From the IMG/VR virus record IMGVR_UViG_2526164632_000013: a DNA stretch of 21,476 bases; one strand, 5' to 3'. Below the pieces are notes generated by a model, which ran no database searches, had not been told where the DNA came from, and saw only the letters and a program-made list of their open reading frames with translations. This document shows, one piece after another, positions 366-19,364 of this stretch. A program made the translations under genes and the position numbers. This DNA is from a virus (lineage: Duplodnaviria > Heunggongvirae > Uroviricota > Caudoviricetes). How positions within the stretch are numbered: the stretch's first letter is position 1; every line of letters begins with the position of its first letter.

Positions 366-479
366 ATCCTGAAATTCCTGAGAGAATAGTGGACACCAAA
401 TATGGTGGACGCTATCCATGAAATCATTAACCGCAGTGCGTAAAAAAGCCCTAATTATCCCGTTGAGTTCAAAATCAAA

Positions 480-821
480 ATGGTTGAACTCTCGCATCGA
501 CCAGAGATCTCCGTAGCGCAACTCGCTCGTGAGCATGGGATCAACGATAATTTGCTGTTCAAGTGGCGCCAGTACTGGCGCGAAGGAAAACTACGTCCTC
601 CTTCAACAACAGAAAACAACGTGCCTGAGCTGCTCCCGATAACACTTGATGCCGAAGATGTTGTCCCTACAACCTCCCCCCGGTCACAACCTGTAGCTGC
701 TGCGACACCTGAATCACTCAATATCAGCTGTGAAGTGACGTTCCGGCACGGATCACTCCGTCTGAATGGTGCCATCAGCGAAAATATCCTGAACCTGCTG
801 ATACGGGAGCTCAAACGTTGA
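480..821 (+). CDS. IS66-family accessory protein orfA (TnpA)
   Basis: 113-aa ORF, first gene of the IS; MVELSHRPEISVAQLAREHGI... looks like a helix-turn-helix N-terminus. An in-frame stop at 441-443 means no longer N-terminus is available. Confidence 0.75.
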   Translation: MVELSHRPEISVAQLAREHGINDNLLFKWRQYWREGKLRPPSTTENNVPELLPITLDAEDVVPTTSPRSQPVAAATPESLNISCEVTFRHGSLRLNGAISENILNLLIRELKR

Positions 822-1165
822 TCCCATTACCATCAGGGACAAAGATCTGGCTGGTCGCTGGCATCACCGATATGAGAAACGGCTTCAACGGCCTGGCGGC
901 AAAGGTGCAGACGACGCTGAAAGACGATCCGATGTCAGGTCACGTTTTTATCTTCCGTGGGCGTAATGGCAGTCAGGTAAAGCTCCTCTGGTCTACCGGC
1001 GATGGACTGTGTCTGCTGACCAAACGGCTGGAGCGCGGCCGCTTCGCCTGGCCGTCAGCCCGGGATGGCAAAGTGTTCCTCACACCGGCACAGCTGGCGA
1101 TGCTGCTGGAAGGTATCGACTGGCGGCAGCCTAAAAGACTGCTTACGTCCCTGACTATGTTGTAA
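818..1165 (+). CDS. IS66-family orfB (TnpB)
   Basis: 115-aa ORF with a TTG start overlapping the orfA stop (TTGA), suggesting translational coupling; N-terminus IPLPSGTKIWLVAGITDMR as in IS66 orfB proteins. Confidence 0.8.
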   Translation: MIPLPSGTKIWLVAGITDMRNGFNGLAAKVQTTLKDDPMSGHVFIFRGRNGSQVKLLWSTGDGLCLLTKRLERGRFAWPSARDGKVFLTPAQLAMLLEGIDWRQPKRLLTSLTML

Positions 1166-1213
1166 GCCTCTTTATCCTGGTCGACGCTGAATGAGCCTGG
1201 TAATATACCCGGT

Positions 1214-2752
1214 ATGAGCAGCTCACTTCCTGACGATATCAATGCACTGAAACGTCTCCTTGCCGAACAGGAGGCGCTGAACCGTGCCCTGCTGGAAAAG
1301 CTGAACGAGCGTGAACGCGAAATAGACCATCTGCAGGCACAGCTGGATAAGCTGCGCCGGATGAACTTCGGCAGCCGCTCCGAAAAAGTCTCCCGTCGTA
1401 TCGCACAGATGGAAGCTGACCTGAAGGCACTTCAGAAAGAAAGTGATACCCTTACCGGTCGGGTTGACGACCCGGCCGTGCAGCGCCCGCTGCGTCAAAC
1501 CCGCACCCGCAAACCGTTCCCCGAATCACTCCCCCGCGATGAAAAACGGCTGCTGCCGGCAGCATCATGCTGCCCGGAATGTGGAGGCTCACTGAGCTAT
1601 CTGGGTGAGGATGCCGCCGAACAGCTGGAGTTGATGCGCAGCGCCTTCCGGGTTATCCGGACTGTACGTGAAAAGCATGCCTGTACTCAGTGCGATGCCA
1701 TCGTGCAGGCCCCCGCGCCTTCACGGCCCATCGAGCGGGGTATCGCAGGACCGGGGCTGCTGGCCCGCGTGCTGATCTCAAAGTATGCAGAGCACACCCC
1801 GCTGTACCGCCAGTCTGAAATGTACGGCCGCCAGGGCGTGGAGCTGAGTCGTTCACTGCTGTCGGGCTGGGTGGATGCATGCTGCCGGCTACTGTCACCG
1901 CTGGAAGAAGCGCTTCAGGACTATGTGCTGACTGACGGTAAGCTCCATGCTGATGACACGCCTGTCCCGGTGCTGTTGCCAGGCAATAAGAAAACGAAGA
2001 CCGGGCGGTTATGGACCTACGTTCGTGACGACCGTAACGCCGGGTCAACGCTGGCGCCGGCGGTGTTGTTCGCTTACAGCCCGGACAGAAAAGGCATCCA
2101 TCCGCAGACCCATCTTGCGGGGTTCAGTGGTGTACTGCAGGCGGATGCATACGCCGGGTTCAACGAGCTGTACCGGGATGGCCGGATAACGGAAGCCGCC
2201 TGTTGGGCTCACGCCCGCCGTAAAATCCACGATGTGCACGTTCGCACCCCGTCAGCCCTGACGGAGGAAGCGCTGAAACGGATCGGCGAACTGTACGCCA
2301 TCGAGGCAGAGATAAGGGGAATGACGGCGGAGCAGCGCCTTGCCGAACGTCAGTTGAAAACGAAACCGCTGCTGAAATCCCTGGAAAGCTGGCTGCGTGA
2401 AAAGATGAAAACCCTGTCGCGACACTCAGAACTGGCGAAAGCGTTCGCATACGCCCTGAACCAGTGGCCGGCGCTGACGTACTATGCAGATGATGGCTGG
2501 GCTGAGGCGGACAATAACATCGCTGAAAATGCGTTGCGGATGGTCAGTCTGGGCCGCAAAAACTACCTGTTCTTCGGTTCGGATCATGGAGGAGAGCGGG
2601 GAGCGCTGCTGTACAGCCTGATCGGGACGTGCAAACTGAACGGAGTGGAGCCAGAAAGCTACCTCCGCTATGTCCTTGACGTCATAGCCGACTGGCCGAT
2701 AAACCGGGTCGGCGAACTGCTCCCCTGGCGCGTAGCACTGCCGACTGAATAA
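1214..2752 (+). CDS. IS66-family transposase orfC (TnpC)
   Basis: 512-aa ORF with N-terminal coiled-coil/leucine-rich region, CPECGG...C..C zinc-finger-like motif, and a long catalytic region; homologous to the fragment at 2-340. Confidence 0.9.
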
Positions 2753-2760
2753 CACATCCC

Positions 2761-5932: not shown

Positions 5933-6283
5933 TTAAGGTTGTGATTCCGGAGGAGTCTTCAGAGAACCAGTAATTCTTCCTGGTAGCTTTCCTTTGTAGG
6001 TTATCCACACATTCTGCGCCTCTAAAATTACGGGGCACTTTTCCGGCGACTGCTCATCCCCTTCACATAACCCGGCAGCAACATCCAGGAAGACCTGTCT
6101 GATGCTCCTTCTGGCTGCTGCCTCATAAAACTCCAGCGCGGCACCTTCAACACGGTCCAGCGAGATGTCCAGGTCAAAAATTTCACCGTCAAAGCGTTTT
6201 TTGTCCCGTAACGCTAAAGTTACCGTAACTTTATTCTCAAAATTGCGGATCCCTTTCACAATCAGTTCATAGTTTTGAGTCAT
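5933..6283 (-). CDS. Hypothetical protein between holin and endolysin (the position ydfR occupies in K-12 Qin)
   Basis: 116 aa; GGGGAGAG Shine-Dalgarno 7 nt upstream of the ATG; starts 4 nt after the holin stop. Family not recognised from sequence alone. Confidence 0.65.
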   Translation of the reverse strand: MTQNYELIVKGIRNFENKVTVTLALRDKKRFDGEIFDLDISLDRVEGAALEFYEAAARRSIRQVFLDVAAGLCEGDEQSPEKCPVILEAQNVWITYKGKLPGRITGSLKTPPESQP

Positions 6284-6287
6284 TGAA

Positions 6288-6503
6288 TTACTCTCCCCGT
6301 GCCGCCTTACGACGGTCCTCTCTGATTTTGAAATACAGGTTAGTCAGATATGTCAGCAGCCCAAACAGCAGACTCCCCAGCACGCCTATTGCCGCCCACT
6401 GAGACGGGGAAACCCTGTCCAGCAACTGCAGGAACCAGTAGCCCGTTCCCACCGCTGACGTGGTGTATGACACACCTGTTGTGATTTTTTCCATCTGGTA
6501 CAT
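6288..6503 (-). CDS. S: Pinholin (S21-like class II holin) with dual-start motif
   Basis: 71 aa [71 protein letters not shown], near-identical over the TM and C-terminal regions to phage 21 S as recalled. Met1 and Met4 give the antiholin/holin dual start. The track's longer ORF (to 6608) spans a terminator and is rejected. Confidence 0.9.
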
Positions 6504-6536
6504 ACCCCGTCTCCCGTTATCCGGAAGCTGACAACA

Positions 6537-6568
6537 ATAAAAAAGCCACCAGTTAAGTACTGATGGCT
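6537..6568 (-). terminator. Rho-independent terminator between the esterase gene and the lysis cassette
   Basis: Minus-strand GCCATCAG-tacttaa-CTGGTGGC (8-bp stem) followed by TTTTTTATT. Confidence 0.55.
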
Positions 6569-6652
6569 CTGATAACTCATGCAGGCGTCTCAGACGACCC
6601 ACTGACACTACCGGTGAGTTTAACGATACCTTCCATTTGACTGGCTCACTTT

Positions 6653-8515
6653 TTATGATGATGCCGGTGCATTTATCTCCAGCACCAGACTTTCTATCTC
6701 AACGCCATACGTTGCATTTTTGGTAATATCCGTCAGCGTCAGTGCATTTAGTCCCACTGTCAGACTGTCTTTTATGACCTGGAATGCCGGGCCAGCCACT
6801 CCATTCAGTTTCGGAGTAACCGTGGCACTGCCGGCGGTGAACACCAGCTCCAGCGTCTGCCAGTCGTTACTGTAATTCCCGAACTCGCCCAACTTTGTGT
6901 TTCCTGCTTTCTTGTGATGCATCAGATTCAGTTTGCCGTCTGTGGTCTGGGTGAAGAACGACATCAGGAACGGGTTACCAGTCCCGGTCATCGCCACGAC
7001 GTCAGGTAACGCTACATCGGTATACAGATAAATTCCCAGACCGAACTGGTTGTTGGTCAGTGCGCCTGACAGGCGAAACTTACAGCTCAGTCTGCCACCC
7101 CGTGTCAGCAGGGAGACTGCGTCATCCACCGGGCGCGTCAGGGACCAGGCTTTATTGCTCTGCTTGGTGATCTTAAATACACCATCTGACAACTGAATTC
7201 CGCCATTCTTAATGCTCCAGCCCTGCGCAGCAGCGTCTCCGGCTGTCGGCAACAGGGAGATTGTGCGTATGGATGCATCTTCAGACGGCCCCGATGGCGT
7301 GTCGCCGCCGGGCGAGGGTTTGATTTCCGGTGCCTTACCACTAATGAAGGCTGAGGTGCGCCCGGCTGCGTTCAGAATAGCGGTTGCCATACGATCGGGA
7401 ATAATGCCACGACGCGCCCATGAGCTGAAATGCGTCGGGCGATTTGATGATACCCAGTTTTTGTTCGTTCGGGATGCCGAACCGTAATAACCAGACCCGA
7501 CAATATCAGGATCTTCTGACGGGTTGTTTGTCGGTGTATTAACTCCGCTACCATCGGTCATAAAGGGAACAAAATAAATCTGCTGGGATTCTTTACCTTT
7601 ATATGCACCATATACCACTTCATATTGCGTACCGTGTTCTTGTTTCCACGCGTATGTCGTGTCGCCACAAATCCAGGGGACTGATGCCGGACTTCCACCG
7701 TGACACTGCGCCGCCAGCCCGGCAAGGTCAGCACGGAACTGCTGTACCATTGCAAGAAATGCTGCTGGCTGCTGGGCGTAACTGGCATTCGTCATATCGA
7801 ATTCCCCCTGCATCCAGCATATCGCCAGCAAAACGTTTTTCGGGTTTTTCTGCAATGCTGCCTTCGTGCGGAAAAGCAGATCCTGATATAACGGCTTACC
7901 CACTCCCCAGCGAGCCGAATCCTGACTGGCCCCCGTGGACTCGCTGAATGTCCCCTCCGTGCCCTGGGTGAATGCCGAACCACCACGACAGCATGGTACC
8001 AGCAGGATCCCCGCATTATTAGGGATATACGGAAGCAGTTTTTTGGCAATATGTAAGCCCTGTCCGACACAGCCGTACTGCCCTTTGCTCAGGTCAGCCC
8101 GGGGATGATTAATCGTACTCATATCCTGAACATCATGCAGACAATGGTCAGCAGGAATGATGTCGTTAAATACGCATACTTCACCACCGGGAGTCACTGT
8201 GTTACGACGGGCCAGTTGCTTAATGCGCGGATGGGGCGCATCGTATGAATCCGGAAGCGGAAGCCCTTCACCGTAAGCCATGGCATTAGACTGCCCGGCC
8301 AGTACGATGACGTAGTACCACTCCGGCTCAGTTGCACCACTGACGACCACATCACCTTCTGCGACAATCGCCTGAATAAGTGCTGCGCCATCATCCGTAT
8401 ACGAAGAAAACGGCCCGCCGTATGGTTGCCATCCTTCACGAATTTTTTGAGCAAGTGCATCAGCAAGGTCTGACGGCGATACCGCCCTGACAACATCATA
8501 GTGTTTAAATGCCAT
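6653..8515 (-). CDS. nanS: Prophage sialate O-acetylesterase (NanS-p-like)
   Basis: 620 aa; [24 protein letters not shown]-type esterase motif; GGGAGGA Shine-Dalgarno 3 nt upstream of the ATG; located between the tRNA cluster and the lysis genes, where NanS-p genes sit in Stx-type prophages. Confidence 0.8.
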
Positions 8516-8963
8516 GAATCCTCCCGGCCGGGATAATATTGTGAGTAAAATGAGGAGCGGGCTGAAGTCCGGAAGTTACAGGACAATGGCAGAAGAGAGA
8601 CAACAGCCCGCAATACGAAAAAGGCCGCGCTATTGCGCAGAGTGATTACTGTCGGATATTATTCGCCAGCTGAAATATTACTTCACGTTTTGTTGTTTAT
8701 TCCTTGCCGCCCGCGTCTCCCAGCGCGGGCTTTTTTTGTCCATAAGAAAGCCCCTCCGGAGAGGGGCTGGAGAGTGGCGCTATGTGCCATTGCATGGTGC
8801 CGGGTGCCTCCCGGTGAATTCAGTACCAGCACCTGAATCCGCGATTATCCCATATACCTACTCGCTGATTGCCCCTCCGCACAGGGGGATTCACCATGCC
8901 AGTTTCTTTTAACAAACTCCCCGCAAAACAGACAACTGTCAACCGTCTGAATTGTGAGACATT

Positions 8964-9003: not shown

Positions 9004-9080
9004 TGGCGCGTTGTACTGGATTCGAACCAGTGACCGATTGCTTAGAAGGCAATTGCTCTGTCCGGCTGAGCTAACAACGC
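9004..9080 (-). tRNA. argO: tRNA-Arg (anticodon UCU)
   Basis: Manual fold: acceptor GCGTTGT/ACAACGC, anticodon stem ATTGC/GCAAT, loop CTTCTAA (anticodon TCT), T-arm GGTTCGAATCC, discriminator G, CCA encoded. Symbol assigned by position, following the ileZ-argN-argO order of Stx-phage late regions. Confidence 0.85.
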
Positions 9081-9093
9081 ATGATGCAGATAA

Positions 9094-9170
9094 TGGACCG
9101 CCATCGGGGACTTGAACCCCGCGCAGCCAGCTTCGAAGGCTGGCGCTCTTTCCTGATGAGCTAATAGCGG
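9094..9170 (-). tRNA. argN: tRNA-Arg (anticodon UCG by manual fold)
   Basis: Acceptor CCGCTAT/ATGGCGG (one G-U pair), anticodon stem CCAGC/GCTGG with loop CTTCGAA (anticodon TCG), T-arm GGGGTTCAAGTCCCC, CCA encoded. Symbol by position only. Confidence 0.75.
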
Positions 9171-9177
9171 TATGTGA

Positions 9178-9253
9178 TGGTGGCCCTTGCTGGATTTGAA
9201 CCAGCGACCTGGCGATTATGAGTCGCTCGCTCTCACCACTGAGCTAAAGGGCC
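9178..9253 (-). tRNA. ileZ: tRNA-Ile2 (anticodon CAU, AUA-reading ileX/ileZ-like)
   Basis: GGCCCTTTAGCTCAGTGGTGAGAGCGAGCGACTCATAATCGCCAGGTCGCTGGTTCAAATCCAGCAAGGGCCACCA is near-identical to E. coli ileX as recalled; anticodon loop CTCATAA. Confidence 0.85.
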
Positions 9254-13723: not shown

Positions 13724-13879
13724 TTACTCCTCAGGTTCGTAAGCTGTGAAGACAGCGACCTCCGTCTGGCCGGTTCGGATTCGTACCTCGCAGAGGTCTT
13801 TCCTCGTTACCAGTGCCGTCACTATGACGGTTAAACAGATGACGATCAGGGCGATTAACATCGCCTTTTGCTGCTTCAT
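13724..13879 (-). CDS. hok: Hok/Gef-family type I toxin (HokD/RelF-like)
   Basis: 51 aa MKQQKAMLIALIVICLTVIVTALVTRKDLCEVRIRTGQTEVAVFTAYEPEE, the Hok family signature; AAGGAG Shine-Dalgarno. An in-frame upstream ATG (13936) with its own Shine-Dalgarno gives a 70-codon mok-like frame. Confidence 0.85.
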   Translation of the reverse strand: MKQQKAMLIALIVICLTVIVTALVTRKDLCEVRIRTGQTEVAVFTAYEPEE

Positions 13880-14090
13880 AGCCTGCTTCTCCTTGCCTTT
13901 CGGCGCGTAAGAGGCTAACCTACGTTTGTGAAGCATAGATTGGGCCTCAGATTAATGTTAAGCGTCTTGCAGGACGCGTAATGTTAACTGGGGCTTTTCT
14001 CTGTCTGCCTTACGGTGGCATGCCCGAGGCAGACAGCCTCAAGCACCCGCAGCAATTCTACTTAACTCCCGTCACCTCGCCAATATAAAA

Positions 14091-14180
14091 TCAATCAGAA
14101 AGGCGATCCATAAGAACAATAGCAAGACAATAAATTGCCACTACAGCCGCAATAGCCAGCGCGCATTTGAGAACCAGCAC
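14091..14180 (-). CDS. 29-codon hydrophobic ORF with strong RBS (hypothetical small membrane peptide)
   Basis: AGGAGG then 5 nt then GTG; (M)LVLKCALAIAAVVAIYCLAIVLMDRLSD; 70 nt downstream of the SIR2-like gene on the same strand. Not in the ORF track (under 60 aa). Confidence 0.35.
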   Translation of the reverse strand: MLVLKCALAIAAVVAIYCLAIVLMDRLSD

Positions 14181-14250
14181 GATAACCTCCTGTATTGGAC
14201 GTACACCAGCTCTGATAAATATGAGGCTGCCTCTTTAACTTCGCATTGCG

Positions 14251-15282
14251 CTACCAATCAATAAAATCAGTGATGTTATCCAACCTAATTACAGTAACTT
14301 CCCGTCTCAACTGGTTTTTCCAATATATCTCACGAGCGTTTTGTTCACCAGCACCGCTCCACTCAATTACTCTTAAAGGCTTAGAGGTTAGGTAAGGTCG
14401 AATAAGCAGGTTAAGGTGAATATCGAGACCAGAGTAACCAAACAATATTATTTCTTCTGATTCAAATAATGCAAACTGCAAATAATCCCAGTACGTAGAA
14501 AGAACATTAGATGCTGCTATAACTGACGGTTTTCTTTTTATATGAGTTAACACTATATGCTCACTAGGTTCATCTATGTCAAGAGTAAGTTGTGAGCGTG
14601 AAAGTTTTAAAACATTTTCATGCTGATTAATAAATAGTGGTGAACCATGCAAGTGCAAATAATAACCAAACCTACGATTGTATTTCCGTTCGAGCGCTGC
14701 AGAGGAAAATCCGTGGCTTAGCATCCCATCAACTAAAACCCCATCATACCCGTTGAATATATCATTATCTATGAATGAATTGTATAATAATTTGTCATAG
14801 TTTAATGTCGCGATATGTGAGTGTGTGTTCTTTACAAACTCCACAAGCGCATTTTCGAATCTTTGTGGCAAACCTTTATCGTAATTATGCAACCTGGTTG
14901 CAACTTTGTGAATATAAGTGGCGGTAATTTTGGGGAAGTTTAGTCCATCTTCAGTAAGCCAATGCACGTTCCCCTCTCCAATTTGAGCAAGAGCTTTACA
15001 ATATGTGACAGCCTGGTGAAGGGTATCCAACTCATGTTCTCCTTCTGGTGGACCTTGCCGCTGAAGACAACGCTCGATAAGTTGCTTGTGGATATCTTTT
15101 AAAAAATTGGGGCGATGCCAAATTTCTTCCAACGCTCTGTCTAAGGAGAAGTGAGCAGGATCTAAAGCCATACCGAGACCGTTGCCGAATATTATTAATT
15201 TTCTTGCCATATAGGGGGACTCATATTGGAATAACGCTGGATAGCGTCGCGCGATACGCTTAAGTTTAGGATTAATAGACAT
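14251..15282 (-). CDS. Standalone SIR2-like (SIR2_2-type) protein, candidate NADase defence effector
   Basis: 343 aa with the ordered motif set of defence-type SIR2 domains as recalled from ThsA: IIFGNGLGMA (Gly-rich NAD loop), IATLNYDKLL (TNYD-type, putative catalytic Asn161), YYLHLHGS (putative catalytic His212), ILFGYSGLD. No other domain. The gene and its 370-bp upstream region are visibly AT-rich compared with flanking phage genes (not computed). Confidence 0.8.
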   Translation of the reverse strand: MSINPKLKRIARRYPALFQYESPYMARKLIIFGNGLGMALDPAHFSLDRALEEIWHRPNFLKDIHKQLIERCLQRQGPPEGEHELDTLHQAVTYCKALAQIGEGNVHWLTEDGLNFPKITATYIHKVATRLHNYDKGLPQRFENALVEFVKNTHSHIATLNYDKLLYNSFIDNDIFNGYDGVLVDGMLSHGFSSAALERKYNRRFGYYLHLHGSPLFINQHENVLKLSRSQLTLDIDEPSEHIVLTHIKRKPSVIAASNVLSTYWDYLQFALFESEEIILFGYSGLDIHLNLLIRPYLTSKPLRVIEWSGAGEQNAREIYWKNQLRREVTVIRLDNITDFIDW

Positions 15283-15650
15283 TCCGTTTGATTACTCTTG
15301 TTATTACAAACTTGCATGCAAAGAAGCCCAAGCTGTTAGGTAAACAGAGACCGCAGTGGCAAGATAATCTAGATATAGCCTATAAAATCCAACAACAAAT
15401 AGCGGCCTGTTTTCTATGACTTTTCTTTTCCCTAAATATCGCTTATCTAATAAAATGCAATAATGTATTGCACAGTATTTAATGTGTATTAATATAGATA
15501 AGTATTGGTCTTATTTGATAACAAATCCTGAGCCTCAAAATGTCTGCTTTTCACACAAAACCAACAAGTAGGCTATTTTTAGCTCTGTGCCGCGAAAATG
15601 TCAATTCATATCCGAACCAATACTCTTTAATTTCATTACCTGTGACAATT

Positions 15651-16058
15651 CTAGGCATATCCCTGATAGAACGCCAATACACGCTGCATAACTTCGCTCT
15701 TCCGGCACTCGCGACAGATTATGTTCATACGCCTGTCGTAGCGGCGTATTTCTCCGTCGGGTAATGTCCAGATAAGGCCCGGATCAACCACAACAGGTTT
15801 CTTCACCTTTGCCCTCGAGAGTTTTTTGCGGGCGTTTTGCCAGTCCTTACGAGCCCGTTCTGACGGGAACACCCCATAGCCAGAGTGATATACATCACCA
15901 CTGGCAACCAGCTCTCTGGCAAGAACGCTCATCAGATATCTTGTCGCACCTGTTTTAGCTTCCAGTTGCCGTAACGTCTCACGACCGCTCTGGCGCACGA
16001 GTTCCACCACCTGTCCTTTAATTTTTTCCCGCTCTTCCTGTGTAAATACTTTTGCCAT
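15651..16058 (-). CDS. Hypothetical protein downstream of the replication initiator
   Basis: 135 aa; AGGAGG Shine-Dalgarno 4 nt upstream of the ATG; basic, with a CRECRK motif. Not recognisable as a helicase loader. Confidence 0.6.
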   Translation of the reverse strand: MAKVFTQEEREKIKGQVVELVRQSGRETLRQLEAKTGATRYLMSVLARELVASGDVYHSGYGVFPSERARKDWQNARKKLSRAKVKKPVVVDPGLIWTLPDGEIRRYDRRMNIICRECRKSEVMQRVLAFYQGYA

Positions 16059-19306: not shown

Positions 19307-19364
19307 TTTCTGGTGACGTTTGGCGGTATCAGTTTTACTCCGTGACTGCTCTGCCGCCGTTTTT
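19307..19364 (+). ncRNA. dicF: DicF small regulatory RNA (ftsZ-targeting)
   Basis: TTTCTGGTGACGTTTGGCGGTATCAGTTTTACTCCGTGACTGCTCTGCCGCC followed by GTTTTT matches the 53-nt DicF sequence as recalled; lies in a 570-bp non-coding gap between the ydfC-like and dicB-like genes, as in Qin. Confidence 0.8.

Follow-up and report, generated by a model that had tools for sequence, protein, structure and literature searches.

An open reading frame (ORF) of a lambdoid prophage encodes a member of a discrete SIR2 family that has no partner gene, is mobile, has a fold of the SIR2-HerA type and is carried by integrons as well as prophages. The ORF lies in IMG/VR record IMGVR_UViG_2526164632_000013, a stretch of 21,476 nt that was analyzed as a whole and is called the window here. 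The family is what is new; the domain call is not, since RefSeq already names the gene "SIR2 family protein" in the record of Escherichia coli O111:H2 strain 12A. We give an even chance to the best reading, that the product would be an autonomous single-domain enzyme that binds nicotinamide adenine dinucleotide (NAD+), depletes it, most likely by hydrolysis, aborts infection and so serves in anti-phage defence. Three points favour this reading: the nearest folds are those of defence-type SIR2s, the active site does not vary, and integrons and several unrelated prophages carry the gene.

SIR2 fold, active site and extent of the family

The coding features of the gene are as follows.

14251-15282, minus strand: SIR2-family ORF, long form of 343 aa, start M1 (list of ORFs)
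14251-15210, minus strand: SIR2-family core ORF of 319 aa, start M25, the length of most family members (RefSeq annotation, WP_000101550.1)
14794-14808, minus strand: TLNYD codons (T135-L-N137-Y-D139) with the catalytic Asn and Asp, read from the sequence
14641-14655, minus strand: HLHGS codons (H186-L-H188-G-S) with the catalytic His, read from the sequence
15211-15282, minus strand: 24-codon N-terminal extension with the core R-[ILV]-x-L-R-Y-P-x-L-F, specific to a subclade by comparison of homologues

An earlier reading of this DNA, made from the letters alone (the sequence-only reading), had reported four SIR2 motifs in the 343-aa product and had singled out N161 and H212 as catalytic. All four motifs are present in the order IFGNGLG, TLNYD, HLHGS and GYSGLD, and a SIR2 fold that occupies the whole 319-343-aa protein was predicted with confidence. 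The Gly-rich loop follows β1, the TxNxD motif follows β2 and the HG motif follows β3, as in the Rossmann-type SIR2 fold. The body plan, a Rossmann core with an all-helical small domain and no zinc ribbon, matches that of the SIR2 subunit of SIR2-HerA, and the resemblance extends beyond the core into the helical small domain, as judged by the longer aligned length. The window protein contains two cysteines, which do not form a CxxC pair. A canonical sirtuin deacylase of the CobB/SIRT type was rejected, as neither a Cys4 zinc ribbon nor a match to PF02146 was found.

Profile searches returned marginal matches. Pfam SIR2_2 (PF13289), the check proposed with the sequence-only reading, was matched above its cutoff by a narrow margin (26.1 bits vs. 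24.5, E 1e-5); it is also matched by 40 of 40 close homologues (best E 5e-7). The PADLOC check on the protein gave weak matches to the Aga_SIR2, PDC-S21 and SIR2 models (E 4e-6 to 4e-4). The NCBIfam search of the window protein gave no match, and the PHROGs search nothing useful. Because the family profile found no PDB sequence at E ≤ 1, the relationship to solved structures is visible only at the level of the fold.

The word-indexed search yielded 794 homologues, of which the best 120 share 56-99% identity with the window protein, are mostly of 319-320 aa and come from Escherichia, Pantoea, Serratia, Citrobacter, Klebsiella, Aeromonas, Vibrio, Pseudoalteromonas, Chromohalobacter, Chromobacterium and others. 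In an exhaustive HMMER scan of 1.84 billion representatives, 305 clusters were recovered at E ≤ 1e-3, nearly all of 310-365 aa and matched along their full length. The family is compact and discrete, and the standalone architecture is the rule.

The catalytic residues are almost invariant among 126 family representatives: N137 is conserved in 98%, D139 in 100%, H188 in 99% and G189 in 100%, and G258, G261 and D263 in 98-100%. Residue numbers follow the 319-aa form, in which N137 and H188 are the N161 and H212 of the 343-aa numbering, so the earlier choice of catalytic residues agrees with the conserved positions. The most variable parts are the helical small domain (residues ~23-130) and residues 195-215.

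Divergent members of the family reached a best E of only ~1e-12 to 1e-13 against any PADLOC v2 model. DUF4917 (PF16263) was matched weakly by 26 of 40 close homologues (best E 7e-8), and the window protein had no match to it at E ≤ 1. The family is thus related to the existing defence models, yet outside their coverage.

Among mobile elements, one homologue was found in 72,556 plasmids, and none was found in BFVD. Unrelated viral contigs of 40-51 kb carry homologues with 41-53% identity, which adjoin terminase and portal genes or an endolysin gene. Because these homologues lie in unrelated viral contigs, we conclude that temperate phages recruited the family several times.

The 24-codon extension distinguishes part of the family. 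Eleven of the clusters among the best 120 homologues are of 343 aa (71-99% identity), and the extension was in frame, with identical length and motif, in nine of the nine 343-aa homologues that were read (71-88% identity). The codons for Y, P, L and F show synonymous differences from locus to locus, a pattern that suggests selection on the protein. In Klebsiella the motif is in frame and has no ATG there, a stop codon and a 1-nt deletion disrupt the region in Serratia, and the remainder of the family lacks the extension. AlphaFold modeled it as short helices with a predicted local distance difference test score (pLDDT) of 74-81. The long ORF from M1 may be the correct one for this subclade and the RefSeq start too short, and the extension may be a subclade-specific regulatory peptide.

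Genomic contexts and the lack of a partner gene

Neighbouring genes were surveyed in 83 loci, 80 from GTDB species genomes and three from assemblies. The 80 GTDB loci belong to Gamma-, Beta- and Alphaproteobacteria, with a few from Chloroflexota, Verrucomicrobiota and Binatia. All-vs-all clustering of the genes within 5 kb revealed no neighbour cluster in more than five of the 83 loci. The nearest flanking ORFs, taken from 75 loci, matched 123 Pfam families, none of which was seen more than three times. No HerA gene was present in the window or near any of the 83 homologues, and the neighbours of the SIR2 gene in the window had no PADLOC match. The description of the gene as standalone and without a partner, given by the sequence-only reading, is borne out by this survey.

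Enrichment of defence islands among the immediate neighbours was not evident in the 75 loci. The 145 nearest flanking ORFs included two nicotinate phosphoribosyltransferases, which act in NAD salvage, and two second SIR2_2 proteins, numbers too small to interpret.

The contexts of individual homologues are mutually unrelated. The Aeromonas homologue follows sucD, that of Klebsiella is flanked by a LysR regulator and a small ATPase-like gene, and that of Serratia adjoins a Fic gene. One metagenomic relative lies near rpsU-dnaG-rpoD, and another (L088) adjoins a TacAT pair and an IS110 fragment.

In Vibrio the gene is an integron cassette. In the Vibrio cholerae locus L093 (5845-7089), the ORF at 6001-6960 exactly spans the gap between two 133-nt VCR/attC repeats, and this repeat is present seven times in the array. 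In the Vibrio parahaemolyticus locus L094 (3773-7650), the homologue lies three cassettes after the IntI integrase, and a ccdAB cassette comes next. Repeat arrays are present in the Aliivibrio and Brumicola loci as well. In V. cholerae and V. parahaemolyticus the homologue by itself makes up a cassette of the chromosomal integron; such a cassette is a mobile unit of one gene, so neither a partner nor an RNA antitoxin would fit. These cassettes are the strongest evidence for autonomy.

Two exceptions were found. In five loci of an alphaproteobacterial subclade (L054, L066, L069, L075, L080), the stop codon of a conserved gene for ~200 aa overlaps the SIR2 start; its product had no Pfam or PADLOC match, and the pair may be a two-gene variant. 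Two Vibrio proteins, P0042 (506 aa) and P0044 (541 aa), are putative fusions in which an extra N-terminal region of 190-220 aa precedes a well-conserved SIR2 body. The two N-terminal regions share homology (30% identity, E 8e-12), have no Pfam match and are unrelated to the alphaproteobacterial protein of ~200 aa. The region may be a sensor domain.

The cassette in the prophage and its slot

In the window the gene occupies an AT-rich cassette between two genes of the phage. Its parts and boundaries are listed here.

14234-15660, minus strand: AT-rich cargo cassette (island) in the DUF977-hok slot, delimited by GC content and by the ends of flank homology
15283-15565, minus strand: non-coding 5' region that travels with the gene, roughly 80% conserved with L088 by eye from the alignment blocks
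15575-15604, minus strand: sigma-70 promoter-like site, TTGACA, a spacer of 17-18 nt and (T)AAAAAT, 10 of 12 consensus positions, a consensus match only
15651-16058, minus strand: DUF977 gene, upstream boundary of the slot and outside the cassette (DUF977 E 1.7e-29 for the E. albertii copy)
13725-14048, minus strand: type I toxin-antitoxin locus hokD/sok, which bounds the slot downstream (Rfam match to sok, 116 bits, at 13874-14048; hokD in RefSeq)

Positions 337-21476 of the window match at 99.6% a lambdoid prophage that adjoins yccA in E. coli O111:H2 strain 12A; the first 336 bases are unlike that reference record. The gene order on the minus strand is a Cro/CI-type regulator, YdaT, a replication-region protein, DUF977, SIR2, hok/sok, rem, DUF968 and RusA.

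The sequence-only reading had taken the gene for a horizontally acquired moron in an AT-rich island, placed where the Qin prophage of E. coli K-12 carries relBE upstream of hokD, and had proposed a promoter of its own. Windowed analysis confirmed the island: the GC content of 14234-15660 is 0.378, vs. 0.51 in the remaining window (z = -3.9), and is below that of every other stretch of equal length in the window. GC at third codon positions is 0.35 in the SIR2 ORF vs. 0.50-0.55 in the neighbouring genes. The position relative to Qin was also as described, with relB-relE directly upstream of hokD and equal downstream synteny in K-12-type Qin. Horizontal acquisition of an AT-rich island with its own 5' region holds; a recent arrival does not. 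A variant of the cassette with 89% identity occupies the same slot in related prophages and forms one continuous 3.5-kb alignment (88.7%) across the replication genes, DUF977 and SIR2. Because this variant co-diverged with the phage flanks, the cassette is a long-standing resident and not a recent insertion. The variant (L105; also L104, L106 and L107) has ~97 extra bases (6976-7072 in L105) between the 3' end of the cassette and the hok flank, which are missing from the window.

The ends of the cassette were set by comparison with other prophages and phages, in which homology of the hok-side flank stops at 14233 and that of the DUF977-side flank at ~15660. The copy in L088, with 88% protein identity and a different genomic context, shares homology with the window that starts ~330 bp ahead of the ORF and stops exactly 17 nt beyond its stop codon (window 14234). 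Because this homology extends upstream in a different context, the gene travels with its own non-coding 5' region. Because the conserved 5' block ends just short of the proposed promoter, which is indeed present upstream of it at 15604-15575, the identity of the native promoter is uncertain. Neither tandem repeats nor an Rfam match was found in the 5' region, and its RNA fold z-score is -0.61, which is not significant; on these grounds, an RNA antitoxin or a repeat array like those of type III toxin-antitoxin systems was rejected. As to integron features, the window copy has no attC, the distance from its stop codon to the prophage flank is 17 nt, and a 5' region of 370-440 bp stands in place of an upstream attC.

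The slot between DUF977 and hokD receives at least five alternative cargos. In other E. coli prophages it holds QueH with or without a methyltransferase, an alpha/beta hydrolase (O157:H7), a DUF5677 protein, or DUF7167 with hypothetical genes. A slot that varies among syntenic prophages and a deviant composition are the marks of prophage accessory cargo, and both were found for the SIR2 cassette. The interval may be a lambdoid accessory or defence hotspot. The cassette was found in it in 46 of 5426 complete E. coli genomes, and in E. albertii too; the E. coli carriers include serotypes O111:H2 and O55:H7, of the enteropathogenic and enterohaemorrhagic E. coli (EPEC/EHEC) type.

Other features of the window were recorded. 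Between the SIR2 stop codon and sok, a strongly hydrophobic ORF of 29 aa, MLVLKCALAIAAVVAIYCLAIVLMDRLSD (14091-14180, minus strand), is preceded by an AGGAGG Shine-Dalgarno sequence; it has no RefSeq annotation, is part of the hok-side flank common to phages Tritos and mEp460, and could encode a small membrane peptide or toxin. The terminase large-subunit gene is split by an IS66-family insertion element with tnpA, tnpB and an ISEc22-type transposase (~418-2753, plus strand), and the prophage is therefore probably defective. Rfam matches were found for the small RNA STnc100 (139 bits; 8738-8928, minus strand), for three tRNA genes (9007-9253, minus strand; Arg, Arg and Ile in the reference annotation) and for DicF RNA (72.5 bits; 19308-19359, plus strand) upstream of dicB.

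Function and comparison with known SIR2 systems

SIR2 domains of this structural class are NADases in SIR2-HerA, Thoeris, DSR, SPARSA and Avs5, and SIR2 NADases are among the commonest bacterial immune effectors. To our knowledge, every characterized system couples the SIR2 domain to a separate sensor domain or partner protein. The structural and genomic claims of the sequence-only reading stood, while its claim of NAD-depleting defence stays conditional. The NADase activity, the auto-inhibition, the trigger and the defence phenotype of the family are what we infer in the scheme below.

The protein would be made in the lysogen and would be catalytically silent at rest, as it must be if no antitoxin accompanies it. 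Silencing would probably depend on a homo-oligomer, as in PsSIR2. An infection cue would then be sensed by the protein itself and activate it. The likely sensor would be the fast-evolving helical small domain or the 24-residue N-terminal extension of this subclade, and N-terminal additions, present in three subclades, are also candidates for sensory or regulatory parts. The active protein would deplete NAD+ and abort the infection, which would protect the lysogen population and the prophage.

We put forward more tentatively, as a possible minimal form of SIR2 immunity, that some 320 residues combine sensor, switch and NADase in one domain pair. The family would be a HerA-independent offshoot of SIR2-HerA, streamlined for integron cassettes and prophage slots, with direct sensing through the variable small domain or through a shift in oligomeric state and with the N-terminal extension as a regulatory element in the enterobacterial subclade.

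If the defence reading is true, the family would show how little is needed to couple phage sensing to NAD+ depletion, and would offer a very small and tractable E. coli model with its native prophage. It would also add the DUF977-hok slot to the known lambdoid accessory hotspots, and link prophage cargo and integron cassettes as two vehicles of one gene.

Several observations weigh against a role in defence. Without HerA, the proteins nearest in structure are either auto-inhibited or inactive: SIR2-HerA systems require HerA for NADase activity, PsSIR2, the nearest relative, is an auto-inhibited dodecamer that becomes an NADase once HerA binds, and a type III Sir2 by itself had no NADase activity in vitro. 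The identity of 56-82% across bacterial orders is unusually high for an immune sensor. In the 75 loci the immediate neighbours are mostly ordinary or housekeeping genes, with few of the defence or mobility type, and no homologue was found in 50,697 deposited phage genomes. The promoter is a consensus match only, and E. coli could silence the AT-rich region. A literature search that covered the accession, PDC-S21, and SIR2 proteins that are standalone or in integrons found no experiments on any family member.

Part of this evidence suits an NAD-dependent protein-modifying enzyme, a lysine deacylase or ADP-ribosyltransferase that would act on a host, phage or eukaryotic-host protein as regulatory or virulence cargo, perhaps like the Campylobacter jejuni protein SliP. 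The high conservation across orders fits a conserved substrate, the neighbourhoods are mostly of a non-defence kind and the carriers include the EPEC/EHEC-type serotypes; the weak DUF4917 matches of close homologues point the same way, as sirtuin deacetylase activity and an effect on neutrophils were reported for a DUF4917 protein. We consider this explanation unlikely; were it right, the gene would be a widespread mobile regulator. The dependence of the closest solved relatives on HerA would also be expected if the gene were half of a split system that needs an unlinked partner, either a HerA-like ATPase or an enzyme that synthesizes a signal molecule, and both the overlapping alphaproteobacterial gene and the Vibrio N-terminal domain indicate that extra modules can be attached to the SIR2 body. 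However, the gene moves alone, as an integron cassette and as a solo insert in Aeromonas, Klebsiella and Serratia, the 83 loci hold no recurring partner, and unlinked dependence is hard to square with the spread over Gamma-, Beta- and Alphaproteobacteria and beyond, so that we regard such a system as improbable. Very improbable, in our judgement, is a selfish toxin that stabilizes its mobile element, or a decaying passenger without current function. Toxin-antitoxin loci do adjoin the gene in several contexts (hok/sok in the window, TacAT in L088, ccdAB in L094), and the prophage, with its interrupted terminase gene, looks defective. However, no antitoxin gene or RNA was found in the 5' region, by repeats, Rfam or fold, and the Vibrio cassette has no room for one; the ORF is intact, its catalytic residues are invariant over ~300 clusters, and the 89% variant co-diverged with the phage flanks without decay.

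The defence reading was compared with the SIR2 systems known so far, and the sequence-only reading was right that no named multi-gene system fits. ThsA, DSR1/DSR2, SIR2-APAZ, Avs5 (SIR2-STAND) and KomC of Kongming have a fused domain (SLOG, large C-terminal repeats, APAZ, STAND) or an obligate partner (ThsB, pAgo, KomAB), and the window protein has neither. Thoeris was rejected, as the SIR2 fold fills the 319-343-aa protein and leaves no SLOG domain, and no TIR gene lies nearby. DSR1 and DSR2 are large single proteins of ~1000 aa or more, in which a sensor region is fused to SIR2; the family members, of 310-365 aa, are too short for this. For SPARSA, the Aga_SIR2 match is weak (E 3.8e-6; best family member 1.7e-12) and covers the SIR2 core only, and there is no pAgo gene nearby.

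PDC-S21, a single-gene SIR2-like candidate of PADLOC, is similar in architecture and length (336 profile positions), and 63 of 81 family representatives match it weakly, the best with E 1.6e-13 over about half of the profile. The window protein matches it with 23 bits and E 8e-6 at positions 18-213 of the 336, which makes it a relative and not a member; our literature search turned up no publication about PDC-S21. The E. coli protein PD-T7-2A, of the SIR2_2/DUF4917 type, is validated in phage defence (Vassallo et al., 2022). It acts in a two-gene system with the HerA-like ATPase PD-T7-2B, whereas the window gene has no ATPase partner; the window protein matched none of the PADLOC PD-T7-2 models at E ≤ 1, and PD-T7-2A belongs to a different family.

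SliP, reported as a DUF4917 "secreted sirtuin", is likewise small, standalone and SIR2-like, and belongs to the DUF4917/SIR2_2 neighbourhood; it differs in its reported activity, the deacetylation of protein in host cells. The Vibrio homologues share the setting of the compact defence genes found as integron cassettes (Darracq et al.; Kieffer et al.); the passages of these studies available to us mention no SIR2 cassette, and the E. coli copy differs in that it lies in a prophage and lacks attC. The SIR2 subunit of SIR2-HerA (Nezha; PDB 8w9l, 8j4u, 8sub, 8wld) is of the same structural type as the window protein. The two share only 15-17% sequence identity, and the PADLOC SIR2 models match weakly. 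In SIR2-HerA a gene for a HerA-family ATPase is adjacent, whereas the neighbours in the window are DUF977, a replication protein and hok/sok.

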